Shown here: piece by piece, positions 2,563 to 25,305 of the stretch
Position numbering within the stretch: the stretch's first letter is position 1
How the letters are laid out: the number at the start of each line of letters is the position of its first letter
Source of the DNA: Candidatus Woesearchaeota archaeon
GTDB lineage: Archaea > Nanobdellota > Nanobdellia > Woesearchaeales > WJKR01
NCBI GenBank assembly: GCA_016927245.1
Contig: JAFGNA010000010.1
Coordinates: 9,894-73,893 of the forward strand
Length of the DNA: 64,000 nt
Direction of reading: 5' to 3'
Notes under the pieces: model-generated
Seen by the model: only the letters and a program-made list of their open reading frames with translations
The model's database searches: none
Told to the model about the DNA's origin: nothing
Position numbers and translations under genes: made by a program

Positions 2563-2567
2563 AGAAG

Positions 2568-3719: not shown

Positions 3720-4303
3720 AGCAACTTCTCGTATTCCTCAGCGATCTCCTCTATGATTTCAAAGTGCTTCTTGAGCTGCTCGTCAAGGGTGAGTTCGTGG
3801 TTGACGAGGACGCGGAAGGCGGCGGCGTTCTGGAGTATGTTGAACAGGATGGTCTTGAGCTGGAGGGGCTTCTTCTTGCTGAGGAGGAGGTCGAGGAATA
3901 TCTCCAGTTGTTCGGCGTGGTGGTCGATGCGCTGGTTGTAGCGGTGATGCTTGGCGAACTCTTCTGCTTGTTCTTCCGAGACTGTTTCTTCAATCTCTTT
4001 CAGCGCTCGTTCCTCTTTCAGGTCGTACTTGAGGAGTTCCTTGTCCAGGTAGAAGATGTCCTGTATCCATTTCTTGACGCTTTGGACGTGGTCGTAGATG
4101 CTGGTCGGTGCGTCGTCGAGGTCCATGCCGTCGGTGACGCGGTCATCCTTGATGAGGACGTCGCACGCGGCGATGATCCTGGTGAGGAGGTCCTTGAACT
4201 GCTTGTGGAGCTTGTGCTCGTCCATGGGCGGCTTGTGGGGCTCAGGGTATTTAACGGTTTCGGAAAGAGAGGATGACCCCTCGATAGTTACTCCAATCAT
4301 CAT
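3716..4303 (-). CDS. hypothetical acidic helical protein
   Basis: 195-aa ORF. Its stop overlaps the pan stop convergently by 4 nt. No motif recognised. Confidence 0.55.
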   Translation of the reverse strand: MMIGVTIEGSSSLSETVKYPEPHKPPMDEHKLHKQFKDLLTRIIAACDVLIKDDRVTDGMDLDDAPTSIYDHVQSVKKWIQDIFYLDKELLKYDLKEERALKEIEETVSEEQAEEFAKHHRYNQRIDHHAEQLEIFLDLLLSKKKPLQLKTILFNILQNAAAFRVLVNHELTLDEQLKKHFEIIEEIAEEYEKLL

Positions 4304-4405
4304 CCTGTGACGTCAGTCGGTGTTCACCATGTCATCGGGGCGGCTGTTGGTAAGTGGAGGGGGTTTATAGGCATATTTATTTACTATATAGAAAATTATT
4401 TTGGT

Positions 4406-4431
4406 AAAAAAAAGCCTCTACAAAGAGAGGC
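4406..4431 (-). terminator. hairpin + U-run terminator (minus strand)
   Basis: Minus strand reads GCCTCT-CTTTGT-AGAGGC followed by T8. It lies about 100 nt downstream of the stop of 4530..5219. Confidence 0.55.
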
Positions 4432-4529
4432 TTTCATAAGAGAGTATCGCCACGTCGCCGAGACAAAAGAGGCAGCGACAAGCGCCATCATCACCAGAGA
4501 AGACGAAGAACGCTCCGACCCTCAAGGCG

Positions 4530-5219
4530 CTAATGCCTCGCGAAGCTCTTATCAGGCATCACCAGGAACCTCTCTTTCAAGGATCCCTTGACGTTGCCGT
4601 CATAAGAGCGCACCTCGACGCGCAATGCCGGCGCCTTGCCCTCCGCGAAGAGGAACTCATCCCTCCTGTCAGCCAACCAGCCCAGATCATCGACAGTGCC
4701 AGGCACATCAAAAAAGAACCAGCCCCAACCGAGGTCCCAGCCAATGATGTAACCACCCAACAGCAGTCTCGAATCGTTAAGGTCAAGCACGAGCGGCACG
4801 GGCGCAGGGTTCGGGACCGCGCTGGCTTCCAACAAGTATTTTTCCCTCGGCGCCCCGCTACGCTCAATCTTGCACCCGTTGACCATCATCGCGTTCGCAG
4901 GGGGGAACTTCGGCGCAACAATCCTCGGCAAGGTCACCGTGCCTTCACGGATGGTGTCCTGGTACCAGTAATCCAGATCCTGGCCCTTGGCGTAGACGTA
5001 GACCTGCATCTCGCCTCCCGCCAATCCTTTCGTAGAGAGGTAGTAGCCCACCCAATCAGCACAGGAGGCGCCGAGCGTGGCCTGGTTGTCATCATAGATT
5101 GCCTGCTGCCGCGCCTGCTCCTTCCTGAGCGCCTCTGCAGCTTCTCGTTCTTTCTTCTTGCCGCAACCAGTCCCTAGGACCAGCAACGCAGCCATCAAGA
5201 ATGATAATAGTCGTTTCAT
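4530..5219 (-). CDS. putative lipoprotein (signal peptide + lipobox-like LGTGC)
   Basis: Track ORF 4530..5465. I prefer the internal ATG at 5219, giving MKRLLSFLMAALLVLGTGCGKKK. The longer N-extension is Phe/Leu-rich junk running through an A/T-rich upstream region. Confidence 0.65.
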   Translation of the reverse strand: MKRLLSFLMAALLVLGTGCGKKKEREAAEALRKEQARQQAIYDDNQATLGASCADWVGYYLSTKGLAGGEMQVYVYAKGQDLDYWYQDTIREGTVTLPRIVAPKFPPANAMMVNGCKIERSGAPREKYLLEASAVPNPAPVPLVLDLNDSRLLLGGYIIGWDLGWGWFFFDVPGTVDDLGWLADRRDEFLFAEGKAPALRVEVRSYDGNVKGSLKERFLVMPDKSFARH

Positions 5220-5314
5220 AAAGCAAAAGGTTTTTGAAAAGTGAAAAACTAATCCGTTAAACTCATTCAGAGAAAAAAAAAGCCTGGAAGAGATGATTCT
5301 CAGAAGAACATCAC

Positions 5315-5551
5315 TCAGGGCATCGGCTGTGAAAAGATTGCAAAACCAAAAAAGATAGCCGCCGCTCCGAGGCCGAGAGCAAGGAGGTCGATCATCACCG
5401 ATAAGAAGAAGAAAAATTTCCCCTCTGCCGTCGGCCTTCCGGTACGGGAAAAAAAAGAGTAGCACAACACGAAGCCGAGCAGCATGATAACGAAGCCGAG
5501 CAGCTTGTTCGCGAAGAATATTTCATCCATTGAGTATTGCAGTGATTCCAT
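5315..5551 (-). CDS. small membrane protein, two hydrophobic helices (78 aa)
   Basis: Hydrophobic segments LLGFVIMLLGFVLCYSFF and FFFFLSVMIDLLALGLGAAAIFFGFAIF are separated by a short basic loop. Confidence 0.5.
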   Translation of the reverse strand: MESLQYSMDEIFFANKLLGFVIMLLGFVLCYSFFSRTGRPTAEGKFFFFLSVMIDLLALGLGAAAIFFGFAIFSQPMP

Positions 5552-5580
5552 AAGAAAGATTTTTTTGTCGATGTAACAAT

Positions 5581-5628
5581 AAAAAAAAAGAGAATCCCTC
5601 TCAAGAGGAATCGTTCCCGGTGAGAGGG
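5581..5628 (-). terminator. hairpin + U-run terminator (minus strand)
   Basis: Minus strand has CCCTCTCA(5628-5621)...TGAGAGGG(5603-5596), an 8-bp stem, followed by T9 (5589-5581). It sits immediately downstream of the stop of 5636..5845. Confidence 0.6.
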
Positions 5629-5635
5629 CGCGCGA

Positions 5636-5845
5636 TCACTCGCGTTGCAGCTCAAGCTTGTCCACAAGGAGCCGGTCCAGCCGCTTGTGCACGACGCCTT
5701 CGTCATCGCAGTACGTAGCGTTCAGGTGCGCGCAGTACGCGTACGACGAATCGAAAGGGTCGAGCCCGACGAACGTGTAGACCAATCCTCCCCAACACCG
5801 TACCTTATCGCCGTTCTTGAACGGCAATTCCCGCTTATTTCCCAT
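5636..5845 (-). CDS. hypothetical small protein (69 aa)
   Basis: ORF is followed by the terminator hairpin above and lies 16 nt downstream of the preceding ORF's stop. No motif recognised. Confidence 0.45.
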   Translation of the reverse strand: MGNKRELPFKNGDKVRCWGGLVYTFVGLDPFDSSYAYCAHLNATYCDDEGVVHKRLDRLLVDKLELQRE

Positions 5846-5860
5846 GACACAAGGTTTTTC

Positions 5861-6325
5861 TCAGTAGTCCGGGTTGTGGTGTTTCCGTAACTCCTTCTCG
5901 AGGAGGCCGCGCATCCCCTCATGACTGGTGAAGAGACAGACAGTATGGATGTTGCGGTGCACGCCCTCGAGGGGTGTGCCGATGGAGTAGTCGAGGATGC
6001 CTTGCACGGTATCCAGAACGACTTGTCCGAGGCGTTCGTCACTAAATGACTCCCATTCAGGGCGCTTGAAGACGGGCATGACGGCCATCTCGACCCGAGA
6101 ATCCCTTCCCGCCTTAGAGAGTGCCTTATGGACGAGTTGCCGGGCGTCCAACTCTTCAGAATTCACGAGGAGGAACCGCCTCATCTTCTTCATGACAGCG
6201 AGGTCTTCCACGCCTTCCTTTTCGGTGATGACACCTATCTCTCGCCCTTCCCTGCTGAACAAGAACCCTTCATCAGGATTCACGAGCAGGACGAACAATG
6301 ATGGTTTGATATCGAATCGTTGCAT
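5861..6325 (-). CDS. hypothetical protein (154 aa)
   Basis: ORF in the co-directional island. No motif recognised. Confidence 0.55.
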   Translation of the reverse strand: MQRFDIKPSLFVLLVNPDEGFLFSREGREIGVITEKEGVEDLAVMKKMRRFLLVNSEELDARQLVHKALSKAGRDSRVEMAVMPVFKRPEWESFSDERLGQVVLDTVQGILDYSIGTPLEGVHRNIHTVCLFTSHEGMRGLLEKELRKHHNPDY

Positions 6326-6417
6326 AACTAGAACTTTTTTTGTTTTTCTGATTATTGATTATTGTCTTGCTTGAATCGTTCTCCTCGAAAGAAGAAGACG
6401 GTGCGCTAGCACCTGCC

Positions 6418-7257
6418 CTACAGGGCTTTTTGGAGGGGGATGGTCTGACGCTCATGATCGATGGGGACGAGGAGCAAGCAACCGTTCCCGGCCCCGAAGA
6501 CCACCAGGTCAGCACGTGGCTTCTTGCCCGCTCGTTCGACGCGCCCCACCGGCCAGAGGTCAATGACGTGCCGCGGACCGACGAAATAGCTGCTGCGCCT
6601 GCACTTCTCCAATTCGCTGATGTTCGTCCGCCAACCGTGGTAGAGGTTCCGCGAGACGCGGGAACGCCGGTGGTTGCGCAGATAGGCGTCGATGCTCGTC
6701 GAGAGGACCGCCGAACAGTCTGAGCGCCAGAGAAAACTCCTTAATACCCCCTCGTACTTCCCGCTCATCCTGCTCATAAGACACCTCAACTGCTTCTTGG
6801 AAGAGGCATGGGAGATTATCACCCCGGAAGAGTAGGTGTTCCAGTAGACATGGAACCGCTTGCTCCGAAAGGAATCGATGATTTCCTGCCTGGTGAATGT
6901 AGGACCGCAATGGCGCTCGTAGTGCTCGTCATGATTTTTTTTGAGCATCCAATCGTATGGTGAGAAAGGCGTGAGGGATTGGCAACAGTCACCGCCCATC
7001 ACCCATTCGTCATCGACATAGTCCTCGTACCACATGAGTGGCGGCCCGATAACGCCATCGACGGCCTTCTGGACCCCGACGACACGTCTGACATTCCTCG
7101 TTACCGGGTTGATGATGACATCGCCGTGCTTGAGACCGGTGAACTCCTCGCAGGCATAGTCTGAGACGTCGATATCGACAGCCTTTTTGGTGCCGGCGAT
7201 GCTGTACGTTCTCATGTTCGTGTTTGTTCGCATAGCTCCATTATTTTTGATGATCAT
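6418..7257 (-). CDS. hypothetical protein (279 aa)
   Basis: ORF in the co-directional island, rich in Trp/Tyr/Cys/His. No motif recognised. The start is uncertain because several early Met codons exist. Confidence 0.55.
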   Translation of the reverse strand: MIIKNNGAMRTNTNMRTYSIAGTKKAVDIDVSDYACEEFTGLKHGDVIINPVTRNVRRVVGVQKAVDGVIGPPLMWYEDYVDDEWVMGGDCCQSLTPFSPYDWMLKKNHDEHYERHCGPTFTRQEIIDSFRSKRFHVYWNTYSSGVIISHASSKKQLRCLMSRMSGKYEGVLRSFLWRSDCSAVLSTSIDAYLRNHRRSRVSRNLYHGWRTNISELEKCRRSSYFVGPRHVIDLWPVGRVERAGKKPRADLVVFGAGNGCLLLVPIDHERQTIPLQKAL

Positions 7258-7287
7258 ATTTGTGCGTCATATCTCATCTCGCGGTTC

Positions 7288-8229
7288 TCAGGCGCTCATG
7301 GACACCTCAAGGTCTCGCATGAAGAACTCGCCCGTCTCCATCGATCGCCGCAGCTTGTCGATGAACAGGCCAAACCGCTGCTCGGCGAGCCCCATCTTGT
7401 CCTGGTCTGCCAGGCAGCACAGGTGGACGTTGAACGTCACCCTGAGCAGGAAGGTGTCCCCTGCTGAGAGGACGCGGTCGCCACGCACCATGACCGAGCG
7501 CTCGAGATAGTCGTTGAGGGTGAGCGGGTACTCTGCCACCAACGGATAGATGAGCATCCCTGCTGATTCCATCCTCCTCGTCACGCCGTCAGGGAAGTAG
7601 AGGTCTGCGTCGTTGATGACGCGGAGCACCCCGTTCCTGAAAGATTTCAAGGTAATCCTCCCAGCTACTGCCGAGCCGTGCTCGACGGTGATGAGTCGGA
7701 AATGGTCGTCGAAGAAGACTTCTCGAGCTCCAAGGGTCCACGGCTTCCTGCACACCGAGCACCGTTCGTGCTTGCCCGCGAGGTACGCGGCCCGGAATAG
7801 GGGGAACAACCGGTTTTCCGGGAGTGAGACGTCAATCCCTTTCCCTTCTAGGAATGACTTGTAGTCATTGAACGTCATGACAGGCGCGACGGGTTCCTCC
7901 CCTGCCAACGCGTGCGTCGGTAGTTCGAGGGTGCGCATGAGCAGCCTGCCATGATGGGTGAGGCAGAGGTTGCCGAACAGGACCCATCGCCTGATATCGC
8001 TCTGCGACAACCCATAGAGGAGCCGCTGTCCTAAGGTGAGGAGCCGGAGCTCTTCCTCGTCCTCCAGTAAGGAGAGGATGCCGTCACTGTCGGTGAACAC
8101 CCTGACGAGGTTCTCGCTGTCCTCGCTGATCGTCTCTGCGCGCGCGATGGCTCGCAAGGCCGATTCGAGCTTGTTATGGTGTGAGAATGGATTGTTCATG
8201 TCTTGTCTGTTTTTTGTTATGTGTGACAA
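7288..8229 (-). CDS. hypothetical protein (313 aa)
   Basis: ORF in the co-directional island. No motif recognised. Confidence 0.6.
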   Translation of the reverse strand: MSHITKNRQDMNNPFSHHNKLESALRAIARAETISEDSENLVRVFTDSDGILSLLEDEEELRLLTLGQRLLYGLSQSDIRRWVLFGNLCLTHHGRLLMRTLELPTHALAGEEPVAPVMTFNDYKSFLEGKGIDVSLPENRLFPLFRAAYLAGKHERCSVCRKPWTLGAREVFFDDHFRLITVEHGSAVAGRITLKSFRNGVLRVINDADLYFPDGVTRRMESAGMLIYPLVAEYPLTLNDYLERSVMVRGDRVLSAGDTFLLRVTFNVHLCCLADQDKMGLAEQRFGLFIDKLRRSMETGEFFMRDLEVSMSA

Positions 8230-8314
8230 TAAGTAGTGGTTCTCATAGCGTCCTGAGGAGAGGTGATCGGCCGCCGCCCACCATCCTCCTTTCTGATGGT
8301 CTTCTGCCGCGTCC

Positions 8315-8818
8315 TCATAGCTCCGCCTCCTCGCCAGTGCGTTGCGTGAATGACCGATAGAACGTTGCGAGCACGTCGGCCTTTCTTTGGGGATCCTCGA
8401 TGGTCACGTAGCCGTCGGGGAACGATGAGCATCGCCCATCGTCGACGGTCGAAGAGGGGAGGAGGTCTGCGACGGAGGGATCGATGTACTCTTGGAGTAT
8501 GGCCTTGGCGTCTTCGCCGAGCGATTCTCCCCAGACCAGTATGTGCTTCACGAGCAGCCTCGGATTGACCGACACCTCGAAGTTGTCGACGTAGTAGCAG
8601 AACAAGAGGTTAACGACATCGTCGCGGCGGTCTCTGATGAACCGCTGGAGCTCTTCAATGAAAGAGCTATGCTCATCGGGGCGCATGAAGCTCTTGATGC
8701 GCAGCATGCCGTCGTGCTCATAGGAGCCTTTCCTGGACAGCAGGGTGATGAAGCAGAAGGCGAGCCTCAACAAGGAGCAGATTTGTCCTTCTATTAATCG
8801 TGTGTTATTGGTCTTCAT
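8315..8818 (-). CDS. hypothetical protein (167 aa)
   Basis: ORF in the co-directional island with a C/A-rich leader (…CCAATAACAATAGCAATCACC-ATG). Confidence 0.55.
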   Translation of the reverse strand: MKTNNTRLIEGQICSLLRLAFCFITLLSRKGSYEHDGMLRIKSFMRPDEHSSFIEELQRFIRDRRDDVVNLLFCYYVDNFEVSVNPRLLVKHILVWGESLGEDAKAILQEYIDPSVADLLPSSTVDDGRCSSFPDGYVTIEDPQRKADVLATFYRSFTQRTGEEAEL

Positions 8819-8929
8819 GGTGATTGCTATTGTTATTGGTGTGTGGATGTGTGATAATCATTGGTGGTGAAGAACCGAGGAGCGTGAGCGCGGCTCATCT
8901 CCCCGGTTCTGGCCTTTCGGCGGGAAAGC

Positions 8930-9421
8930 CTAGGACGTAGCAGCGAACAGCCTTTTCGAGAGGAACCTGTTATCACTGCAGAAATCCTTGATTGCCCGCT
9001 TGAACGATTCTCGCTCAGCGGTCGCGGCTCGCTGCGGGAAACGATCGTCCAGGTACCTTGCGAAACGCTTGACTTTCCTTGCGTACGTCTTGCACTTCCG
9101 CTTGACCTTGTACTTCGTGACGTTTTCTTCGTAGACGCGGCTGATGCAGTTGTCCGCGGGGCCGGTGACGAGCTCGTTGAACTGACCGGTCATGCCATGG
9201 GACAGCGACTTGTTCTTGTCGGTCTCTCGCTCCACCCCTTCCAGCAATGGTCCGTAGTACGCCGTTGCTTCTTCCGCCAAGGCCATGACCCTCGCCTCGA
9301 CGTTCGCACGCTCCTCGCAGGTGATCGGGCAAAGGTGCCAGTTCGGGATGAGGATCCATGCTATGACGCCGCCGATGATGAATGCTCCGACAGCGATAAT
9401 GATGACATAGGTTTTTTTCAT
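8930..9421 (-). CDS. membrane-anchored hypothetical protein (N-terminal TM)
   Basis: N-terminus MKKTYVIIIAVGAFIIGGVIAWILIP acts as a signal anchor, followed by a charged soluble domain. Confidence 0.6.
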   Translation of the reverse strand: MKKTYVIIIAVGAFIIGGVIAWILIPNWHLCPITCEERANVEARVMALAEEATAYYGPLLEGVERETDKNKSLSHGMTGQFNELVTGPADNCISRVYEENVTKYKVKRKCKTYARKVKRFARYLDDRFPQRAATAERESFKRAIKDFCSDNRFLSKRLFAATS

Positions 9422-9479
9422 GATGATAGCTTTTTATTGTTGTTGATGATACGATGCGATATGCATGGAGGAAAACGAG

Positions 9480-9508
9480 GTGCCGACAGGTGCCGGCACG
9501 CTCGTGCC
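9480..9508 (-). terminator. possible hairpin terminator (minus strand)
   Basis: Directly after the stop of 9509..11272 the minus strand reads GGCAC-GAGC-GTGCC. An alternative hairpin GTGCCG-N8-CGGCAC is followed by CTCGTTTTCC. Confidence 0.35.
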
Positions 9509-11272
9509 CTAAAAGAGGTAGCTTATCGTGAAGGAGATACCGCTGAGGCCGAACCGCTGGTCAACGCCGAGGGCTTCCCCTTGCAGTGCGGGTGCTCCGT
9601 GCGAGTTCCCGACGTACTGCCACCCTTTAGGGTAACGCGTCAGGTAGGCCTCCACACCGAGGTGCAGCCATTCGGTGATGCCGAACTGCAACCCGGGGGC
9701 GATGGTGAGCCCGGTGAGCCTTGCGTCCAGGACGAGGTCAGGGTCATCCGCTCCCTCAGGATAGGTCGCCGTGATCGTGGTGCCGTCCATCGTGTTCGTG
9801 ATGGTCTCAACCACTATCTCCTCGAACCCGAAGTAATAGTCAGGCCCGAAGCCGAGGCTCGCGAGCAACCGCCTGAACCCAAGGTATCCTTTGGCACGGA
9901 AGCCGAGCATCTCGCCATCGCTACGCGTGTAAGAAACCTCATCGCTGAAGTAAGGCCCTATCTGCGGCATGCGCAGGACACGGTAGTAATCCACTCCTCG
10001 CAGGTAGCTGACGCCGACGCCGATGCCCGCGGTGAAGCTTCCTCGCTCGTTGAACAGAAGCCCGAAACCCGTCTCATACGAGGGGAAATACCACGTGTTC
10101 TCAAGGTCTTCGTCGAGCGGTCCGCCGGTGAGCATGCACCTCGTCCCGAGGCCGACGTAGACCATCCTTGCAGGATGGGTTCTCGGCAGCGTGTCCTTTG
10201 AGGGCAGGTACACTGTGTCGGGATCGTCGACAGGGCATGGGGGGAGGTAGATGGTGTCCGGGCAGCACGTGTCGTTTTCCAGGCGCTTGACGGCTTCGAG
10301 GATTTCCTCGTACCCTTTGTCGTCATGGCTGTAGCCTTCCAGTGCTTCCTTGACCCAGTTCGTCAGCTCTTCCTTGGTGAAGGATTCTTGCGGAGTGTGA
10401 GGTGTCGCTTGGAGTCTTGGCGTCTCCGCTTCTTTCCTTGAAGGACTCGCGGCCTCTTTGCAGTGGCAGATGTTGACGAACGCCATTCCTCCTTCGTGCA
10501 TGACGAGGTACCATCCTTGGTCTATCGATCGCAGTTGCTCCTCGGTCAGCACCCAGGGGGAGCGCCAGTACCTTTGGAGCCTTGCGCAGGACTCGGGTGA
10601 GACCTTGCTTGAGGGTCCGTTGAGGCATCGCTCGAGCTCGTCGAGTATCCTTTCCTTCTCGGCTTCCCGGTGGTTCGCGAGCATCCCGTTGAAGAATTCT
10701 TCGGCGTACAAGGAGCTCAGGTAGGCCTTGATTCCTTCTTCCCTGTCGAGTACTGCCTGCGCTCCTTTGCGTATCCTTTTCGGGATGGTGTAGCTTCCGT
10801 CGGCTTTTGGGCGCACCCGTACGAAGGGGTCGTTGGCCAGAGGTCCGAGGGTGGTGTTGTTGGTGTACACTTGCTCCGGGCAGTTGCAGTCTTCCTTTCC
10901 TTCCGTGCCGCTTTTGGGGAGCACCAGCTTGGCGAACTCGCCTTCTGCACAGATGAAGGTCTCTTCCCTTATGAGTTCCCTGACATCTCCTTCGCTGACG
11001 GCGATGCTGTCAGCCATGACTTTTCCGTTCTCTTTCTCGGGCTTGACGGCCCAGTAGCCGTTGATGTCAGCGTAGAGGTTTATCCGGGAGATGTCCTGGT
11101 AGTCTTTTGAGGACAGCTGTTCCTGGAAATGGTGGCCGGTCAGTGCCTTAAGGGCTTCTTCCAGCCGCTCGGTGAACTCCCACGAGCCGCATTGGCGTTG
11201 CTGCGCGCGGGTCACTACCGCCGTGCTCAGGAGCAGGGCGGTGATGGTTGCGATGATGGTTGTCTTCTTCAT
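9509..11272 (-). CDS. secreted protein with C-terminal beta-barrel-like (OMP-like) domain
   Basis: Sec-type signal MKKTTIIATITALLLSTAVVTRA|QQ. Cys-rich middle region. The last ~230 aa show alternating hydrophobic/Gly/aromatic strands (FGLLFNERGSFTAGIGVGVSYL, LTIAPGLQFGITEWLHLGVEAYLTRY). The protein ends in GLSGISFTISYLF with a terminal Phe. Confidence 0.7.
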   Translation of the reverse strand: MKKTTIIATITALLLSTAVVTRAQQRQCGSWEFTERLEEALKALTGHHFQEQLSSKDYQDISRINLYADINGYWAVKPEKENGKVMADSIAVSEGDVRELIREETFICAEGEFAKLVLPKSGTEGKEDCNCPEQVYTNNTTLGPLANDPFVRVRPKADGSYTIPKRIRKGAQAVLDREEGIKAYLSSLYAEEFFNGMLANHREAEKERILDELERCLNGPSSKVSPESCARLQRYWRSPWVLTEEQLRSIDQGWYLVMHEGGMAFVNICHCKEAASPSRKEAETPRLQATPHTPQESFTKEELTNWVKEALEGYSHDDKGYEEILEAVKRLENDTCCPDTIYLPPCPVDDPDTVYLPSKDTLPRTHPARMVYVGLGTRCMLTGGPLDEDLENTWYFPSYETGFGLLFNERGSFTAGIGVGVSYLRGVDYYRVLRMPQIGPYFSDEVSYTRSDGEMLGFRAKGYLGFRRLLASLGFGPDYYFGFEEIVVETITNTMDGTTITATYPEGADDPDLVLDARLTGLTIAPGLQFGITEWLHLGVEAYLTRYPKGWQYVGNSHGAPALQGEALGVDQRFGLSGISFTISYLF

Positions 11273-11334
11273 GTGGTCTTATTGTTTGATTATTGTTGTT
11301 TTGTTGTCGCGGTATGAGGAGGATCTCTCCATCC

Positions 11335-11661
11335 TCATTCCTCTTCTTCGCCTTCGAGGAGCTCGTCCTCGATGGGAGGCGCATCGTCGCCGAGGATCTC
11401 TTCAGGGTAATCGATGTCCTCGATGTCCTTATCTATGGGGAGCGATGGCTGGACGCCTTCGTCCTCGCCGATGAGGGCTTTGAGGAGGGGGTATGATTCT
11501 GGGTGGCGTTTGGCGATGGTCGCTAGGCGCCTCACCGTGCTCTCCGTGAACGATCGCATCTCTTCATCGTATGCGTCGAAGTTATGGCAGCTCAGGTACG
11601 ATTCGAGCTTGTCGAGCAATGATGATATCTTTGGCTTGCCGCCGTTCCCTTGCTCATTCAT
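11335..11661 (-). CDS. hypothetical acidic protein (108 aa; alternative start 11745)
   Basis: Track ORF 11335..11745. The internal ATG at 11661 forms an ATGA start/stop overlap with the upstream ORF, whose stop is at 11658-11660. The C-terminus is highly acidic. Confidence 0.5.
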   Translation of the reverse strand: MNEQGNGGKPKISSLLDKLESYLSCHNFDAYDEEMRSFTESTVRRLATIAKRHPESYPLLKALIGEDEGVQPSLPIDKDIEDIDYPEEILGDDAPPIEDELLEGEEEE

Positions 11662-12395
11662 GGCGTGTATGATTCTATGGAGAGCGTCGGCCAGCCTGGC
11701 TTGTATTCGATTCCGCCAGGGTCCTTGTCCACGAGGATCGCCCATGTTTGGTGGGGCATGCCTTTCTGCAAGTTTTTCGCGCGGACGAGGTAGAGGTCTT
11801 CCCCGTAAGGTTTCTTCTTATCGTCGGCTGCTCGCTCGAGTCTTCTGGTGACTTCCTCGAACGGCGCGATAAGGAGGAGGGATGTCTCCTGGAATGTCCG
11901 CTGAGTCCTCAAGCCGACGAAGTAGTGCAGCCTGTAGACTCGCCCGTTGCTGACGAGGTGCGCTTCCTGGAATTGGTTCCCGTGCTTGCGGCGCAGCTCC
12001 TTGATGGTCTCCACAAGGGTTGCCAGTTCATCCGTCTGCGCTGGGACCAGCAGTCCCTTGAACGAGGTAGTGGTCAGTTCCAAGACTGCCTCGAGGGAGT
12101 AGCCGTAGCGGAGGCATTCCTCTGACACTCTTCGTCTCAGTTCCTTGTTGTCCAGACCATCATGCTCTGGGCGTTGCCTTGCTCTTTCTTCCTCGTTGCT
12201 TGGCGCCCGTGCTATTTCGATGAGATAGTGGCCTTCTTGGTGCTCGCCGTCGATGAGCAAGCTCCCTATGGTGAGGAGGTAGCCCTCGTCAGCGGTGAAA
12301 CGGGCGGTGATGAAGAGGCTTTCCGTGGTGAACTCGCTTTTTCTGATGCCCTTGAGGCAGTCTTCAGTGGTCTTTTTTTCTGTTCTTCGTTCCAT
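11658..12395 (-). CDS. hypothetical protein (245 aa)
   Basis: ORF in the co-directional island, translationally coupled to the next ORF. Confidence 0.6.
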   Translation of the reverse strand: MERRTEKKTTEDCLKGIRKSEFTTESLFITARFTADEGYLLTIGSLLIDGEHQEGHYLIEIARAPSNEEERARQRPEHDGLDNKELRRRVSEECLRYGYSLEAVLELTTTSFKGLLVPAQTDELATLVETIKELRRKHGNQFQEAHLVSNGRVYRLHYFVGLRTQRTFQETSLLLIAPFEEVTRRLERAADDKKKPYGEDLYLVRAKNLQKGMPHQTWAILVDKDPGGIEYKPGWPTLSIESYTP

Positions 12396-12496
12396 TGCGT
12401 TTGATTATTTTGTGTGTTTAAGTTGTTCTTTTCTTTCTCTTCTGGCATCCTTCTTCCTGGTTTCAGCAAGGGGCCTTCGGCGTGGTCTTCCCTTTC

Positions 12497-13036
12497 TCAT
12501 CGGTGCGCCTCTCGGTAAGCGGTCCTCGCTTGTTCCATCATGCGCTCCAAGGCCAATAATGCCTTCCTGATCTCTCTTTCAGCCTCTTGTTCGGGCGAGG
12601 TAGTGAACGCGATGGTGTCAGGGGTGAGAATGAGTTCGTTCCCGAGCCGCTCTGAGGCGTAGGCGATGTAGGTCCATGCGAGGAGTTGGTCTATCGTCTC
12701 GTCGTCGTAGAACCTGTCGAACGCTTGTTCTGCGGGGTGCGTGATTCGCTGCAGCCTCGGCGTCTTTGCGTGGGTGACGAGGTGTTGCCAGAACAGGCAG
12801 GAGACCTCGCTCGCCGTTTCTTCCTCGTTGATGGTCTCTGCGAATCTCTTGAATTCCTTGTAGACGAACTCATTGACATCGTAGACTGTGGTCTTGTTCT
12901 TGTCGTCGCTGCTGGCCACTATGAGGAGGAGCAGGGTGATGATGACTGCGGTGATGATGAGCTGCGCGCTCGTAGTGGAGCGCTGGGCGTTCCGTTGAAA
13001 GCTTGTTTTTGTTGGTGTGTCTGTGTGTTCGTTCAT
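12497..13036 (-). CDS. membrane-anchored hypothetical protein
   Basis: Single TM (AQLIITAVIITLLLLIVASS) after a polar N-tail, followed by a helical soluble domain. Confidence 0.55.
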   Translation of the reverse strand: MNEHTDTPTKTSFQRNAQRSTTSAQLIITAVIITLLLLIVASSDDKNKTTVYDVNEFVYKEFKRFAETINEEETASEVSCLFWQHLVTHAKTPRLQRITHPAEQAFDRFYDDETIDQLLAWTYIAYASERLGNELILTPDTIAFTTSPEQEAEREIRKALLALERMMEQARTAYREAHR

Positions 13037-13112
13037 GGTGATGTGTGCTTGTTAATGGTTTTTGGGTGCTTCATCGGTATTCCTTGGGTGTCTCATGTTA
13101 AGGAGTGGTTGT

Positions 13113-13559
13113 TCAGCCAATCCTTGACTTCTCCCTGAACCACCTCTTGAGGGCCATCCCTATTTTGGTCTTTGCCAGGTAGAGGAGTGAGAGCGCGATG
13201 CCGAGGCTTGTCGTCCAGCCTGCTGCTCTAAAGAATAGTTGCGTCTCGTCCTGCGGTCCTCCTGTGGACATGAAGAAGAAGAACGCGGCTGCTAATACCA
13301 GTATGGTCTTGATGACAAGGAAGATTATGGGGACGCCGAGGATGACGACGACCCGTTGTTTTTCCTCTTTGAGCTCTTCCTCGTCCTCGGGGATGAACCC
13401 AGTGAGTACGACTCCGCCGAGGCCGAAAAGCCAGAGTAGCCCTCCGTGCATCCAGTCGAGTTGGAGCGATTGTTCTTCCTTTCCTGAGAGGGTGACGAGC
13501 ACGATGGTGAGTGCGGTGATGAGCATGAGGATGACCCATTGATAGGTTGATTTTTTCAT
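13113..13559 (-). CDS. polytopic small membrane protein (~4 TM)
   Basis: Track ORF 13113..13667. The ATG at 13559 (MKKSTYQWVILMLITALTIVLVTL) avoids a 47-nt overlap with the upstream ORF. Confidence 0.55.
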   Translation of the reverse strand: MKKSTYQWVILMLITALTIVLVTLSGKEEQSLQLDWMHGGLLWLFGLGGVVLTGFIPEDEEELKEEKQRVVVILGVPIIFLVIKTILVLAAAFFFFMSTGGPQDETQLFFRAAGWTTSLGIALSLLYLAKTKIGMALKRWFREKSRIG

Positions 13560-13620
13560 GACAGTCTTTTTTAGTTCGCGATTATTGTTTATCATTATCA
13601 TTGAGGGGGGTGTCGTTCGT

Positions 13621-14415
13621 TTAGAACGCTTCGACGAGCCCGAAGCCCATCTCCTGATAGCCTTCATCGTTGATGCGTATGCCGCCGCAACGGTCCAGCC
13701 ATTCCATGAGGTCGACGGGTCTCGAGAAGTCGAAGAACTCGAGGGGGACTTCGTAGTGGTTCTTGGTCACCACCGGTCGTGGGAGGGACCTCGTCTCTAT
13801 TTTGGTCTTGATGGTGACGGCCCATCGTTCAGGTCTTCTTCTTATGCGGATGTCTGCGTCTATCACAGCGCAGTCGTCCTTCGCGACGATGTGGCTGACG
13901 ACGCGGTACTCCACTCCCAAGGGGTTGTGCACGCGGTAAAGGCACATGGTCTCGTCAGCGAGGTCATCAGTGAATTCGATGTGATGGATGAGGGTCATCT
14001 CGTGCTGTGCTGATAACGATGTGGTGGTGAGGATGAGCAGGAAGATGAGCTTTGTCTTGTTCCTCTGTCGCTGCTTGCGATTCTTCTCTTCCTCTTTAGT
14101 CTTCTTGTGCTGTTCCGATAGTGCGAGGAGTGATTCGGAAAACGCGAAGAGTGCCGTGGTGAGGATGATGGTGATGAGTGCTGTTGCGATGAGCCCTGCT
14201 GAGACATTGAGTATTCCCGTCTTGAACATGAAGTTAGGGAAGAGTATGCCGAGTGTCGTGTAGGCGATTGCGTACTCGGTGGTGAAGAGGATGAATGCTC
14301 TCGCGTTGGGTTGCTTCTCGTGCTTCATTGGACTGCCTTTCAGGTTCTTGGTGAAGACGATGAATGCTGCTATGTAGATGGCCAGTCCGATAATGGCGAT
14401 GATGATTGGTTTCAT
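13621..14415 (-). CDS. membrane protein (4-5 TM) with C-terminal soluble domain
   Basis: Hydrophobic helices span the first ~150 aa, with a Lys/Glu/Arg linker, then a ~110-aa soluble tail. Confidence 0.6.
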   Translation of the reverse strand: MKPIIIAIIGLAIYIAAFIVFTKNLKGSPMKHEKQPNARAFILFTTEYAIAYTTLGILFPNFMFKTGILNVSAGLIATALITIILTTALFAFSESLLALSEQHKKTKEEEKNRKQRQRNKTKLIFLLILTTTSLSAQHEMTLIHHIEFTDDLADETMCLYRVHNPLGVEYRVVSHIVAKDDCAVIDADIRIRRRPERWAVTIKTKIETRSLPRPVVTKNHYEVPLEFFDFSRPVDLMEWLDRCGGIRINDEGYQEMGFGLVEAF

Positions 14416-14444
14416 GATGTAAATTTTTTTGGTTTTCTCCTTTT

Positions 14445-15305
14445 TTATGCTTGGTTTGCTCTGGTCTGGGCGTAGTCATGCTCTGCCTCGTCGCCGCACC
14501 TGCACGCCATGAATTCTTTCATGCCGGTGCCGTAGTGGTCTTTCCCTTCCAGGAGGTCGTCGGTGACGTCCCTTCCGTACCATCGTGAGAGGGCGGCGAA
14601 GGTTATTTCCTGCTTGTTGTCGCGAGGCGCGTAGAGGCAGGGGCAGTCATCTTCGCACTCGTGGAACAGTTCGTGTACACCTTGTGAGATAGCATCGTAT
14701 TCCTCTGCCTGGGGGTCCTCCTCGGAGGAGTCTTGGAGAGAGGGTAATCCTGAATGCCCATAGGGGTCTGGGGCTGCGGCGTACGCTCCCTTTGGCTTCT
14801 TGTGAACGATAAGGATGTCATGGGGAGAAGTTGTGAGTTTTTCGAACGATTCTTCCTCTTGCTCTGGTATAGCTTGCCTGTTGGTCTTCACGGGCTGGGG
14901 GTCTCCGCGGTCGCGGTCACCGTTGCGCCTCCTCCTGAACTCTCTCGTCTTTGTCTCCTTGAGGTACTTGGTGTTCTTGCGGCGCTTCTTGGAATTCAGT
15001 TCGATCATGGTTTGGTGGTCGCCGTTGCTCCTGGAGAGCAGCGCTTCGTCGTTATTCTTCACGGCTATGGCGAACGCTCGTTTCAGGTCTTCTTCGGTGT
15101 TGGTTTCTCCTTCGTAGATGGTATCGCCGAGAAGGTTCTTGATGGTCAGGGTGTTGTTCCGCAAAGAGTGGGTGTAGCTGATAATGATGAACTCGTTGAT
15201 GTCGTAGCGGTATTCGCCTTTGCCGGTGAGTCGGTCGTCGGTTTCTTGGTGCTTTCCTTGCATGATGGCGCGGAAATCGTCGGTCGTGATTGTTGCTGTT
15301 CTCAT
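14445..15305 (-). CDS. hypothetical charged protein (alternative start 15386)
   Basis: Track ORF 14445..15386. The ATG at 15305 (MRTATITTDDF) is preceded by an AT-rich stretch. Basic/acidic low-complexity centre and Cys/His-rich C-terminus. Confidence 0.5.
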   Translation of the reverse strand: MRTATITTDDFRAIMQGKHQETDDRLTGKGEYRYDINEFIIISYTHSLRNNTLTIKNLLGDTIYEGETNTEEDLKRAFAIAVKNNDEALLSRSNGDHQTMIELNSKKRRKNTKYLKETKTREFRRRRNGDRDRGDPQPVKTNRQAIPEQEEESFEKLTTSPHDILIVHKKPKGAYAAAPDPYGHSGLPSLQDSSEEDPQAEEYDAISQGVHELFHECEDDCPCLYAPRDNKQEITFAALSRWYGRDVTDDLLEGKDHYGTGMKEFMACRCGDEAEHDYAQTRANQA

Positions 15306-15585
15306 GGTGATGCCAATGTTTTTTGATGATGAAAATATTGCGTTTGATGCTTTCAGATGATATCGCCGTTCTTGATGCCGCGGCACCTTGAGGCGATGGT
15401 CTTCTGCACGTCGTTCTCTGCGAGCTTCTCGTCTGTTATTTCCTGTAAGGTCTCTTCGTCGAGCTCTCGCATGAGCGCTTCGAGGTGTTGTTTGAATAGC
15501 AGGAAGCAGCCTGTTTCCTTGAGATGTCTTTCCTCTGCTCTGCGAGGAATGTTTCTTGGGTGCTCTTCTTTGTCTCGCTTTTAGG

Positions 15586-15993
15586 TTATTCTCTGCGCTT
15601 CCTTTCCTTATCTTTCAGAATAAGATGAGGGATCTTGATGAAGACGTAGTGCGGTAGCCGTTTGTGGTAGTGGTCCGCCTGCCTCTCTATCGCTTCGTCG
15701 TCTTCTTCGTAGTGCCAGTAGATGAGTTGCTCCTTCTCTTCCTTGATGAGCTTTCTGAGGAGCTTGGCCAGGCTTTCCCTTGCTGAACTGTCGATGTACT
15801 CCATCTTGACGTGTATGGTTGAGAAGTCAAGCGATTCGAGCCGTTCGCTGAGGTTGTTGAAGAAGTCGTTGTCGATTTCTCCTTCCGGTACGAGCAGTCG
15901 TCCTTTGATGATAAGCTTGGTGAATGGCGGTTCTTCTTGGACGATCACTTCAGGAGTGTTCTTGGTCGCTGTTCTGATGATGATTGTTTCCAT
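15586..15993 (-). CDS. SiaC-like / DUF1987 family protein
   Basis: The pattern TKNTPEV…G(R)LLVPEG…F…(L)…MEYIDSSARESLAKLLRKL…LIYWHYEEDDEAIERQADHY follows the DUF1987 (SiaC) signature TP.V…G.S.PE…L.Y.NTSS…L..L…W.Y…D. Recognised from memory, not from a search. Confidence 0.6.
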   Translation of the reverse strand: METIIIRTATKNTPEVIVQEEPPFTKLIIKGRLLVPEGEIDNDFFNNLSERLESLDFSTIHVKMEYIDSSARESLAKLLRKLIKEEKEQLIYWHYEEDDEAIERQADHYHKRLPHYVFIKIPHLILKDKERKRRE

Positions 15994-16036
15994 GTTTTTC
16001 TCTTTTTTTGCTGTTCTTCTGTCCTTTTGTTGTTCT

Positions 16037-16273
16037 TCAGTCGGTCGTCGTCCTTTTGCGGTCTTCTTCTTTCCCTGCGAGGTCGCTGATCCTGTTGGCG
16101 ATGAAGACGCCGACGAAGAAAATCGCGATCGCTGCGATGATGAGTATCCTTACGTGCACTGGCTTTGCGAGGCAGGGAACGGTGAGTACGAGGAGCAGGT
16201 AGAGGAGCCATGCGATGATGAGGATGTTGCCTGTGGTCACCAGCTTTTTCTGATTGTTCCAGAGCTTTTTCAT
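16037..16273 (-). CDS. small two-helix hairpin membrane protein (78 aa)
   Basis: NILIIAWLLYLLLVLTVPCLA - KPVHVR - ILIIAAIAIFFVGVFIA, then a charged tail. Confidence 0.5.
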   Translation of the reverse strand: MKKLWNNQKKLVTTGNILIIAWLLYLLLVLTVPCLAKPVHVRILIIAAIAIFFVGVFIANRISDLAGKEEDRKRTTTD

Positions 16274-16313
16274 GGGCGTGGTTGTTTTTTGGTGGATGAT
16301 GATGTTTCTCTCA

Positions 16314-16342
16314 TAAAAAAAGAGGAGCGGGCGCTCGCCTCC
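16314..16342 (-). terminator. hairpin + U-run terminator (minus strand)
   Basis: Minus strand has a GGAGGCG…CGCTCC imperfect hairpin followed by TCTTTTTTTAT, 30 nt downstream of the stop of 16372..16926. Confidence 0.45.
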
Positions 16343-16371
16343 TTTTCAGGGCGGTCCGCGCTCGCTTCTTA

Positions 16372-16926
16372 TCAGTAATTAGCGTCTTTTTCCTGTTGGC
16401 AGTAGTGCCAGGGCAGCTCTTCGTGGACGCCTTCGTAGTAGATGGCGCTCATCGCCTCGTCAGGTGTCAACCGGAGGTTGTTCAGGTCATAGCGGTATTC
16501 GTGCGTCCCGTGCTCGTGGTTGATGATGATGTAGAACATCTTCGCGTCCTTTTTCCCGGTCGGGCTGTAGGTCGCCACTTCTGCGGTGATGTTGTCGCTG
16601 TAAGCGCCTTCGTTGATGTTGTGGGCTTTCCTGAGCTTCTTCTCGTTGAAGAAGTACTCCTCGTCGTGCTTGTTGATCGGTATTGGTTTGTCCTTCTCGT
16701 AGACGAAGACGTCGAAGAAGTTGTGCTTCTTCCGGTCCGTCACGTAGGTCTTGAACGCTACTTGGTATTGGTTGTCAGGCGTTGCTAGTTCTTGGGTGAG
16801 CACGACGTACTCGTCCCCGGCGATGGTGGTGAAGTCGACGTCCTGCGCGGCTAGCCTCGTGGCTGCTATGAGGACGATGATGATGCTCCACCTGGATTTG
16901 ACGTTGTTGTGATTGTCTTTTTTCAT
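16372..16926 (-). CDS. secreted hypothetical protein
   Basis: Signal peptide …RWSIIIVLIAATRLAA|QD. The mature part is beta-rich and rich in Tyr/Asn/Lys. Confidence 0.6.
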   Translation of the reverse strand: MKKDNHNNVKSRWSIIIVLIAATRLAAQDVDFTTIAGDEYVVLTQELATPDNQYQVAFKTYVTDRKKHNFFDVFVYEKDKPIPINKHDEEYFFNEKKLRKAHNINEGAYSDNITAEVATYSPTGKKDAKMFYIIINHEHGTHEYRYDLNNLRLTPDEAMSAIYYEGVHEELPWHYCQQEKDANY

Positions 16927-16981
16927 GATTATTACTTTTTTTCGTGGATACTTGCTTGGTCGTTCTTTTGATGGGTTGGAA

Positions 16982-17431
16982 TCAACGCGTCTCGATGCCG
17001 TGCTCGTGCTGGTGGTCCTTCACGAACCGTGCGAGGAAGCGCGTTGCGTGCATGATGAACCAGAGGCTTGCCGTGACCATCCATACTGAGGCGAGGTAGA
17101 GCGGTATGGTTCCTCTGACGCACAGGGCGAAGGCGAGGAGTGAGAGGAGCGAGTAGAGCGCGTAGCCGTTCTCCCTTTGCAGGTATGCCTTGGTGACTTC
17201 GTCTTCTTCGAGGAAGAGGTTTCTGCAGACATAGAAGCTTATCTTTATGAACCCTGCGAGGAAGAGGGTGATGAACGCGTAGTACCACAGGATCTTGGCG
17301 TCGAGCTCGTCGTATTGGTGGAAGAAGTACGTGATGAGTGCGATGACGAGGAGGAGGTAGGTGATGAGGATGATGGTGTCAAGCAGTCCTTTGGACGGCT
17401 GGGCGTGATTAATGGTTTTTTGCTTTTTCAT
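16982..17431 (-). CDS. polytopic small membrane protein (~4 TM)
   Basis: 149 aa with four hydrophobic segments. No motif recognised. Confidence 0.55.
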   Translation of the reverse strand: MKKQKTINHAQPSKGLLDTIILITYLLLVIALITYFFHQYDELDAKILWYYAFITLFLAGFIKISFYVCRNLFLEEDEVTKAYLQRENGYALYSLLSLLAFALCVRGTIPLYLASVWMVTASLWFIMHATRFLARFVKDHQHEHGIETR

Positions 17432-17469
17432 GATGATTGCGTTTTTGATGAGACATAGTGTTATTTTAG

Positions 17470-17537
17470 CGCTTCCGCCAGGTTTCGAGCCTGGAGATGA
17501 CTGGTTTAGTCATCCACGCCTATTCGTGTAGGAAGCG
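17470..17537 (-). ncRNA. tRNA-like cloverleaf, non-canonical (possible tRNA remnant or mimic)
   Basis: Minus strand reads CGCTTCC-TA-CACG-AATAGG-CGTG-G-ATGAC-TAAACCA-GTCAT-CT-CCAGG-CTCGAAA-CCTGG-C-GGAAGCG. It has a 7-bp acceptor, U8, a D-loop GG and a T-loop-like UCGAA. Against a real tRNA: no U33, a 2-nt variable region, an extra nt before the 3' acceptor strand, and a C1-G72 pair. Confidence 0.3.
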
Positions 17538-17592
17538 GGGAGGAAAGAAGCGCCTGTAGGGGCTTGCTCCTTTCCTGTAATGAGAGGTTTTC

Positions 17593-18435
17593 TCAGAGCG
17601 CGGCTTTCAGCTTGCGTTCTTCCTCTAGTCGCGCTAAGAGTTCTTTTGAGGTGAACGGGAGCCTGAGGTAGTGTCGGTGCTCGTTGACACTGGGCTTCAT
17701 GAATCCTGCGACGAAGATTACTTGCCAGGGCTTTGCCACGCCTTGCAGCTTGGTGTATGGTCCTGTCTTGTCGAAATTCGACTGCTTCGCCTCTCCTGCT
17801 ATCTCTCCCAGGATGATTGCGCATTCGGGGTTGGAGATGATGAACTGCTTGGCTATCTCCTCATCTGATAGGTCGTCGTTCACGTACATGAGTTGCATCC
17901 CTATCTCCTCGGCTATCGCTTCCGCCCATTTCTTGTTCGCAGGCTCGTTCAGCTTCCCCCCTACAACGAACAGTCCTCCTCTGCGTTCCTTGGGCTCCTT
18001 CTCTATCACTTCTTCCTTGAACCAGAAGTCGTATACTTCTTTCCAGTCCTTTTCCTTTCCTGTTTCGAAGCAGTTCGCCTTCTGGTAATCTTCTCTCTTG
18101 AGCTGGTCGAGCGCCCAGGCTATTGGACCGCTGTGGTGGCCGAGGTCGGTCACGAGAGAAACGGCCTCTATTCCTTTGTTGATCGCTATCAGTGCTATGA
18201 TGAGCCCGTAGGGGACTTCCTTGCCGATTTCGGGGTGGTTCATGCTGACTCCTTCCGCTTCTGCTGGTAGCATGACGTCTGTGAAGACGGCGTCGATGTC
18301 ATCATGGGTGGAGAGTTGGATTATGGCTCCTGTGTAGGAGTTCGCGAATAGGAGGTTGCAGATATTTCCGAGTTGTTCCTGTGCTCGTTTGACATTGGCT
18401 GTTTTGTCATCTACTACTAGTATTGTCTTGTGCAT
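17593..18435 (-). CDS. CheY-like receiver domain protein with second receiver-like half
   Basis: N-terminus has ILVVDD…DAVFTDVMLP (acidic pocket and phospho-acceptor Asp pattern). The C-terminal half ends …VIFVAGF…YLRLPFTSKELLARL, resembling a receiver alpha4-beta5-alpha5 (KPF->LPF). No output domain recognised. Confidence 0.55.
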   Translation of the reverse strand: MHKTILVVDDKTANVKRAQEQLGNICNLLFANSYTGAIIQLSTHDDIDAVFTDVMLPAEAEGVSMNHPEIGKEVPYGLIIALIAINKGIEAVSLVTDLGHHSGPIAWALDQLKREDYQKANCFETGKEKDWKEVYDFWFKEEVIEKEPKERRGGLFVVGGKLNEPANKKWAEAIAEEIGMQLMYVNDDLSDEEIAKQFIISNPECAIILGEIAGEAKQSNFDKTGPYTKLQGVAKPWQVIFVAGFMKPSVNEHRHYLRLPFTSKELLARLEEERKLKAAL

Positions 18436-18656
18436 GGCTGGTAAAGGTTTAAATTGTTAATAATCATTTTTTTGGCGCTCTTGGTGGTAGTCGAACCTTG
18501 GTCAAAACTTACACCTTGATGGTCTTGCCGCTTTGCCGTCGCGGTGTGCAAGAGATGTATTTGGTTCTGTGCTTCTCCTGGAGTCCCATGGATGAATGCT
18601 CAGGCAGGGATCGTTGGGATCGCTGGGGTTCAGATGGTGGGATTGAGTTCTTCTAC

Positions 18657-19451: not shown

Positions 19452-19467
19452 AATATATAAATCTTTC
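19452..19467 (-). promoter_or_regulatory. BRE/TATA promoter (minus: GAAAGATTTATATATT), identical 16-mer to 22087-22102
   Basis: Consensus archaeal TTTATATA with a purine-rich BRE, 10 nt downstream of the ATPase stop. It is followed on the minus strand by a ~385-nt C/A-rich tract leading to the ATG at 19064. Confidence 0.5.
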
Positions 19468-19476
19468 GAAAATTTA

Positions 19477-21516: not shown

Positions 21517-21518
21517 GG

Positions 21519-25281: not shown

Positions 25282-25305
25282 GGCAGCACCCCGGCAACAC
25301 CCCAT

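Follow-up and report, generated by a model that had tools for sequence, protein, structure and literature searches.

A 64,000-nucleotide stretch of contig JAFGNA010000010.1, from a Candidatus Woesearchaeota archaeon (hereafter the window, meaning the whole stretch at its full length), carries on its minus strand a gene for a secreted orphan protein of 587 amino acids (9509..11272; delimited from the list of open reading frames (ORFs) and codon usage). [quoted passage not shown] The initial annotation had seen in the protein a bacterial outer-membrane protein (OMP) signature, a claim that is partly supported: the signal peptide, the N-terminal domain, the Gly- and aromatic-rich C-terminal β domain and the terminal motif all stand, whereas kinship with a known OMP, porin or autotransporter family does not. 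An OMP-like module is thus a plausible description of the protein, in an island of bacterial flavour and perhaps directed at a diderm partner, but a barrel has not been demonstrated.

The ORF is present with its stop codon at 9509-9511 and a G+C content at third codon positions (GC3) of 0.75, and the peptides previously quoted from it are real, all of them lying within the last ~230 residues of a protein that ends in FGLSGISFTISYLF. Residues 1-23 (11204..11272) form a predicted signal peptide, MKKTTIIATITALLLSTAVVTRA|QQ (...VVTRA|QQ), recognized from hydropathy and the A|Q pattern; it can be laid out as MKK-TTIIATITALLLSTAVV-TRA|QQ, has a hydrophobic core of 17 residues and is of the Sec/signal peptidase I type. 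It is also the sole hydrophobic segment of the protein, so that the N-terminal Sec signal noted earlier holds on inspection, and judging from it the protein is probably exported by Sec. Cleavage is predicted before Gln24, at a site of the Q-rule type placed by eye, as a heuristic, rather than with SignalP. The next 312 codons (residues 24-335; 10268..11203) encode a putative extracytoplasmic domain, delimited by composition and by a BLASTP match to the homologue described below, which is acidic, holds 8 Cys and is largely helical in a low-confidence model; over residues 25-355, Glu accounts for 12.4% and there are 11 Cys. A conserved motif, W-x-L-x-E-E-x-L-x-S-I-x-x-G-W/F-Y-L/V-V ... F-x-x-I-x-H, lies near residues 240-274.

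A Cys/Pro-rich linker (residues 336-367, CCPDTIYLPPCPVDDPDTVYLPSKDTLPRTHP; 10172..10267), within which a DT[IV]YLP motif is duplicated, leads to the C-terminal Gly/aromatic-rich β domain (residues 368-587; 9512..10171). This putative barrel was delimited by composition, alternation and the remote homologue. Its Gly (14.5%) and Phe, Tyr and Trp (15%) contents are similar to those of OmpA/OmpX, the last 232 residues giving 13.8% and 14% with one Cys, and seven windows within it have a fully apolar alternate face. According to the classical rule for OMP C termini, Phe or Trp comes last and hydrophobic residues occupy positions 3, 5, 7 and 9 from the end; the last 14 residues here (FGLSGISFTISYLF; 9512..9553) close with ...ISFTISYLF and thus supply F1, Y3, I5, F7 and I9. 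The same rule is satisfied by 10 of the 3438 ORFs of at least 100 amino acids in the window and the relatives' loci (0.3%); the ending is rare, yet it is a weak signal when taken alone and does not decide the matter where a whole window has been scanned for such features. Directly 3' of the stop codon, a GC-rich hairpin and then a T-run occupy 9480-9499 on the same strand.

The sole homologue was found by scanning all loci for the C-terminal motif, and it lies in the closest relative, a locus of a Woesearchaeota metagenome-assembled genome (MAG) designated L001 (the other relatives' loci are L081-L083 and L085-L088). It occupies L001 18505-20094 (minus strand), encodes 529 amino acids ending in ...VLFSVTFTF, and sits ~7-9 kb beyond the gene for PAN, matching the window's gene in side, strand and approximate distance. 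Its architecture is likewise the same: the signal peptide runs ...GAGA|QG, and an acidic middle region precedes a C-terminal part rich in Gly and aromatic residues. Identity between the two proteins is ~21%, in two collinear BLASTP matches (middle, E 3e-4; C-terminal, E 0.05). The terminal OMP motif is kept (F1, F3, V5, F7, V9), alternate hydrophobic residues are kept in the aligned segments LHLGVEAYL / VLLGLNVEF and FTISYLF / FSVTFTF, and GW-x-Y and DQRF are invariant. The downstream neighbour in the window (8930..9421, minus strand), which encodes 163 amino acids with an N-terminal membrane anchor, is in turn homologous to L001 17895-18587, directly downstream of the L001 homologue (BLASTP E 8e-4). 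Compared with 400 shuffles, the local scores stand at z=5.1 for the middle part, z=4.4 for the C-terminal part and z=5.6 for the downstream neighbours; shuffle controls against other OMP-like ORFs gave z about 0. The collinear matches, these z-scores, the kept alternation and the invariant motifs together argue that the gene and its neighbour form a two-gene module under selection, which has diverged to ~21% identity.

Searches for further relatives were negative throughout. A word-indexed search of 5.8 billion protein clusters returned only the protein itself, a profile built from it and its homologue found nothing new, PHROGs gave no match, and neither of the two proteins has a relative in GTDB genomes, IMG/VR, JGI metagenomes or phage and plasmid records. 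No additional family member is present in the four further loci L085-L088. An exhaustive phmmer search of 1.84 billion representatives produced one match (P0002, E 1e-5); it was rejected as a homologue, because the matched protein (218 residues) is a five-fold tandem repeat whose score is the sum of four Gly/Thr-rich matches of ~30 bits each.

The bacterial flavour around this archaeal gene goes beyond what the initial annotation knew, as a PorP/SprF-like barrel and T9SS type-B cargo lie near the homologue and A|Q signal peptides recur. In the same L001 gene string, immediately downstream of the homologue module, a Bacteroidota-type T9SS cassette (L001 12794-17390, minus strand) encodes proteins of 812, 314 and 400 amino acids. 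The first combines SprB repeats with a type-B C-terminal domain (PF13573, 3.5e-29; PF13585, 2.3e-17; TIGR04131, 9.6e-15, above cut-off). The second is PorP/SprF-like, matching TIGR03519 at 1.9e-15 with 57 bits, below the 90.6-bit cut-off, and PF11751 at 6e-8 with 33 bits, above the Pfam cut-off. The third is PorE/CHU_0125-like by a partial match (1.2e-23) that is far below the family cut-off. All three carry MKK...A|Q or G|Q signal peptides, and since the cassette lies between PAN and the homologue it is not a chimeric end.

Cleavage by signal peptidase I that leaves Gln as the new N terminus has been described as a Bacteroidetes-specific trait (PMC5837995). Among the cleavable-looking signal peptides of secreted island proteins from the window, L001, L081, L082 and L083, 12 of 14 have Gln at +1, compared with none of six secreted proteins, lipoproteins included, encoded outside the islands (Fisher p=7e-4), which show AAA|PP, AAG|LY or L-x-G-C lipoboxes instead; one further island signal peptide with Gln at +1 occurs in L087. 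The 587-residue protein itself conforms to this Q-rule (TRA|QQ). The relatives' islands also hold full-length RpoD/RpoS-like sigma-70 genes (NCBIfam, 4e-71), at L081 19690-20544 and 21903-22037+ and at L082 18494-18841. Such genes had already been noted in Woesearchaeota, with mis-binning excluded, their role unexplained and the question of a bacterial host raised (PMC8204110); their location in these islands is not described in that paper.

The host of the island is a Woesearchaeales-like DPANN archaeon. The firmly archaeal context claimed for the window is borne out by PAN, Trm5, FEN-1, EndA (tRNA-splicing endonuclease), MBF1 and an archaeal RNase P RNA (59919-60271), although Hjc, listed with them, was absent from the three candidate ORFs tried. 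PAN in the window shares 80% identity with its L001 counterpart and 61-74% with the PAN proteins of several other MAGs, some of them labelled Nanoarchaeota or Nanoarchaeia. In four more distant relatives, nothing intervenes between PAN and the series Trm5, FEN-1, a conserved gene and EndA; compared with this order, the window contains two insertions, one of ~18 kb at 3.7-22.1 kb and another at 26.6-41.3 kb. The right-hand end of the first of these (19477..21995, minus strand) encodes a DUF87/HerA-like ATPase (679 amino acids; PF01935) and a 158-residue protein, which together head the island and are conserved in relatives, so that the variable part of the window is confined to ~3.7-19.5 kb.

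As delimited by synteny and 5' contexts, this variable island (3720..19476, minus strand; ~16 kb) comprises ~20 same-strand genes between PAN and the ATPase. Almost all of them are without relatives, and Pfam, PHROGs and NCBIfam are nearly empty for their products. The ATPase has 752 homologues, of which the named ones are mostly from Woesearchaeota or Nanoarchaeota and one is from Thermoproteota; some JGI records label such homologues transcriptional regulators, suggesting a DNA-binding region. The ATPase and the 158-residue gene adjoin Trm5 in seven related contigs (L081-L083 and L085-L088), and in six of these seven loci the pair is followed by a same-strand array of relative-less genes; the two proteins may form machinery that serves the island specifically. 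Homologues in the relatives' islands are present for four genes of the window's island (14445-15386, 15586-15993, 17593-18435 and a small ORF at 19064-19351). GC3 ranges from 0.64 to 0.81 in the island (0.40 in one ORF) against 0.81-0.88 in adjacent core genes, and the correlation of relative synonymous codon usage (RSCU) with the core is 0.84 for the gene studied here and 0.84-0.88 across it and the island.

The 5' regions of island genes (pooled from the window's island at 3720-19476 and from those of L001, L081 and L082) differ from those of core genes. An archaeal TATA-like box at about -42..-19 precedes 1 of 61 island genes and 18 of 46 core genes (p 3e-7), and a Shine-Dalgarno (SD)-like site 6 of 61 and 15 of 46, respectively (p 0.006). 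In the last 25 nucleotides before the start, A makes up 46% in the island and 29% in the core, and G 12% and 23%; island leaders show recurrent TAACC-N3-AAAAA and AATAATC motifs and frequently an ATC|ATG start context. In Bacteroidetes, mRNAs have no SD sequence, and initiation is favoured by an A at -3 (PMC6847099). The Bacteroidetes -7 promoter element TAnnTTTG was also considered and dropped, as it is not enriched (8 found, 10.5 expected), and generic sigma-70 promoters and terminators occur in the island at shuffle level. With the -7 motif at this level, and with the L083 and L088 islands using SD, the expression argument is suggestive only.

Taken together, these features lead us to favour, tentatively, an OMP-like membrane module that acts on the envelope of a diderm partner; as a whole, we would sooner expect this reading to fail at some step than to hold throughout. 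As the N-terminal sequence suggests, the signal peptide would first be removed before Gln24. The C-terminal ~220 residues, whose β-rich, amphipathic and conserved character is partly shown, would then form an antiparallel amphipathic β domain of predicted fold, most likely an OMP-like barrel with the last strand bearing the terminal-Phe motif of the type used by the barrel assembly machinery (BAM). Such a module might embed in, or dock onto, an outer membrane and there display the acidic, Cys-rich N-terminal domain. Because we know of no outer membrane in the archaeon itself, genomic context would point to the envelope of a diderm, Bacteroidota-like partner as the likeliest site of action, at the cell-cell interface, where the co-conserved, membrane-anchored neighbour (8930-9421) would act together with the 587-residue protein.

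Several observations weigh against this proposal. The Pfam check for OMP and porin families that the initial annotation had suggested returned 0 families even at E<=10, with no OMP, porin or autotransporter (PF03797) among them; NCBIfam gave nothing relevant and no T9SS sorting domain, neither collection yielded a PorP/SprF, PorV or PorE profile match, and the PDB gave none by phmmer or by the profile of protein and homologue. AlphaFold2 models made without an alignment are uninformative, with predicted local distance difference test (pLDDT) scores of 32.9 (full length) and 31.4 (residues 361-587), and Foldseek on the latter model returned a meaningless template modelling (TM) score of ~0.1. 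By eye, ~16 strand-like segments can be drawn, for which 220 residues are short. Period-2 hydrophobicity of the C-terminal domain is modestly above shuffles (z=1.8), and the same index takes values of 1.9 for OmpX and of 1.8 and 1.7 for the soluble proteins streptavidin and ConA. The index can therefore not tell a barrel from a sandwich, the amphipathicity of this part of the protein fits a soluble β sandwich equally well, and the home-made β-strand/period-2 index was dropped as barrel evidence since it does not separate OMPs from soluble β proteins. Sequence statistics support a β-rich, amphipathic C-terminal part but do not show that it is a transmembrane barrel. The content of Gly and aromatic residues is the sole composition feature leaning towards OmpA/OmpX over soluble β proteins.

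Genomic context adds to these reservations. The C-terminal domain was considered, and rejected, as a relative of the L001 PorP/SprF-like protein (z=0.6) and of the OMP-like ORFs of L082, to which it has no similarity. Two such ORFs lie on the minus strand of L082, at 2418-3312 (MKKTIILFTAIVCALATNA|QD ... VYFGLTF, split by a frameshift) and at 1720-2340 (MKKSILL...AHS|QV), and neither has a family match. No T9SS gene was found in the window's own island, and no Omp85/POTRA protein turned up among the ~40 ORFs scanned in the 64-kb window. Host-like codon usage fits a protein made and used by the archaeon itself. We know of no bacterial partner for any DPANN archaeon, nor of a mechanism by which an OMP is inserted from outside into the outer membrane of another cell.

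The main rival, possible but on balance unlikely, is accordingly that the protein is a soluble secreted or surface protein of the archaeon, with a C-terminal β sandwich, jelly roll or lectin-like fold, which resembles OMPs in its ending and composition by coincidence; the A|Q signal peptides would then stem from a preference of the lineage's own signal peptidase for island-type cargo. The missing OMP family match, an amphipathicity index equal to those of streptavidin and ConA, a C-terminal motif that by itself arises by chance in 0.3% of ORFs, an archaeon with no outer membrane known to us and host-like codon usage are all in keeping with this explanation. Coincidence fits less easily with a terminal motif and strand alternation that survive at ~21% identity, with a Gly/aromatic content nearer to OmpA/OmpX than to soluble β proteins, with a homologue co-oriented with T9SS-type outer-membrane genes, or with the confinement of Gln at +1 to island proteins.

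Alternatively, an archaeal virus or another mobile element may have integrated here, with the protein as one of its structural or host-recognition components; this would account for the abundance of orphans, their arrangement on one strand, expression signals distinct from the core and the presence of a HerA/FtsK-type ATPase. The insertion of an island made up almost entirely of orphans into conserved synteny, a weak PHROG 'terminase large subunit' match of the ATPase (1.4e-12) and the distinct leader motif repeated before most island genes point in this direction. We nevertheless consider such an origin improbable. The ATPase and the 158-residue gene stand next to Trm5 in all seven related contigs examined, and homologues of the ATPase in DPANN archaea number in the hundreds; no integrase, capsid or portal protein matched among the island proteins, no att-like flanking repeats or tRNA were found at the island, and IMG/VR and phage records contain no match. 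T9SS and sigma-70 genes would, moreover, be unexpected in an archaeal virus.

It is similarly hard to credit the gene as a horizontally transferred passenger, on DNA that came from Bacteroidota cells or their mobile elements, persists in a recombination hotspot and does little or nothing for the archaeon. Bacteroidota-specific families in L001, the Q-rule signal peptides of island proteins, the frameshift in one L082 OMP-like gene and the commonness of bacterial genes in DPANN genomes (PMC8204110) would agree with such a history. Functionless DNA is less readily reconciled with an intact ORF of 587 codons, with a two-gene module that has kept its architecture, signal peptide and terminal motif despite ~21% identity, with an RSCU correlation with the core of 0.84-0.88, or with searches of 15 billion proteins in which no bacterial relative turned up.

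An assembly artefact, in which a bacterial fragment was mis-joined into an archaeal contig and to which the bacterial-looking features and slightly lower island GC3 might have pointed, is refuted to the extent that it can be considered effectively excluded on the following grounds. Archaeal genes in the same order as in relatives flank the island on either side, six assemblies independent of one another show the same junction between the DUF87 ATPase and an array of orphans, counterparts of four island genes occur in the islands of relatives, and island codon usage resembles that of the core (RSCU correlation 0.84-0.88).

A bolder form of the diderm-partner proposal, which we hold to be very unlikely, would have the islands behind the DUF87 ATPase serve as toolkits that work inside a Bacteroidota host, their products being passed over a bridge or expressed by the host, whose Sec and BAM would assemble the 587-residue protein into its outer membrane. 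The Q-rule peptides, the OMP motif, the T9SS type-B domains with a PorP/SprF-like anchor, the RpoD-like sigma-70 and the SD-less, A-rich leaders may then all be host-type signals. The bridge would be a cytoplasmic one; in the other case island nucleic acid may itself be transferred, as the T-DNA of Agrobacterium is; the island products may be processed by host Sec, BAM and T9SS and transcribed with island sigma factors.

Further genes in and around the island were noted. The gene at 15586..15993 (minus strand) belongs to the SiaC family (PF09345, E 3.4e-10), a bacterial regulatory phosphoprotein of the partner-switch type, and its homologue lies in the L086 island; an overlapping plus-strand ORF (15722-16378) is probably not a gene. 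A second secreted island protein is encoded at 16372..16926 (minus strand), with an A|Q signal peptide (...ATRLAA|QD) identified by inspection. The 280-residue product of 17593-18435 (minus strand) is well conserved, unlike most island genes, in L082 (3512-4315, minus strand; phmmer 3.5e-54), and its N terminus is weakly receiver-domain-like. Just after PAN, a short stretch at 4277-4588 (plus strand) is conserved in L001 (11318-11491, plus strand), with 54% identity over 41 residues (E 5e-11); no island gene was called across it, and either a small gene or an RNA could lie there.

Outside the island, the second insertion (26660-41326, plus strand) encodes a helix-turn-helix protein and a giant secreted protein of 4579 residues, with Laminin_G_3, Golvesin_C, MG2, Big_7 and DUF2341 domains and a signal peptide, AAA|PP, that is not of the Q type. 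Between Trm5 and FEN-1 lie a Fic-domain gene and an EamA transporter gene (23255-24259 and 24406-25305, both minus strand); L082 (5859-8117) also has ParE, PIN and MazE-type toxin-antitoxin genes and L086 has HicAB, and the interval looks like a small variable spot. Another large surface-type protein, of 1163 residues with Laminin_G_3, FG-GAP repeats and a 3-keto-disaccharide-hydrolase-like domain, is encoded beside the RNase P RNA gene (60383-63874, minus strand).

To our knowledge, all cultivated DPANN archaea have archaeal hosts. Whether bacteria can also serve as hosts is an explicitly stated open question (PMC8204110), and the island contents, namely OMP-like proteins, a T9SS cassette, signal peptides with Gln at +1, sigma-70 genes and distinct expression signals, provide a testable pointer to a diderm, Bacteroidota-like partner. 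By naming candidate interface proteins, the island turns the bacterial-host question into specific testable predictions, which are not proven. A true membrane barrel would make this one of very few β-barrel membrane proteins encoded by an archaeon and would raise the question of how such a protein assembles without BAM; if the C-terminal part is only a soluble β domain, the finding is an orphan secreted protein in a hypervariable island.

Compared with known systems, the protein would at best work like a bacterial OMP or an autotransporter-type fusion, while by profile similarity it is a member of no such family. With bacterial OMP barrels (OmpA/OmpX, OMP_b-brl) it shares the Sec signal, amphipathic segments of ~10 residues rich in Gly, Tyr and Phe, and a final Phe preceded by hydrophobic residues at positions 3, 5, 7 and 9 from the end. 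It differs from them in having no profile match, an Asn-poor domain and a fold that is predicted only, and its producer is an archaeon with neither a known outer membrane nor a known BAM. The order of signal peptide, 'passenger' (~310 residues), linker and β domain with an aromatic end is that of classical (type Va) autotransporters, but the β domain is shorter (~220 residues compared with ~250-300) and has no PF03797 match, and the linker, as judged from its sequence, is Pro/Cys-rich rather than α-helical.

The T9SS offers a further comparison, as a divergent PorP/SprF-like gene, a type-B cargo and a PorE-like protein occur in one gene string with the homologue and the MKK...A|Q style of signal peptide is common to both; the 587-residue protein itself resembles neither PorP/SprF (z=0.6) nor the sorting domains of the T9SS, and no T9SS gene was found in the window. 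Among the papers listed by literature searches, none combined DPANN archaea with type IX secretion. In the PopA superfamily of Bdellovibrio, a barrel acts at a predator-prey interface, and a possible distant relative in Altiarchaeales has been noted (PMC12228718); PopA serves here as an analogy only, no similarity to it having been found or tested. Bacterial systems in DPANN archaea are already known, and a precedent in kind is the sigma-70 case (Castelle et al. 2021, PMC8204110), a paper in which the term 'outer membrane' occurs 0 times: there, as here, bacteria-type genes of unexplained function reside in verified archaeal contigs, and the sister islands L081 and L082 carry sigma-70 genes as well.

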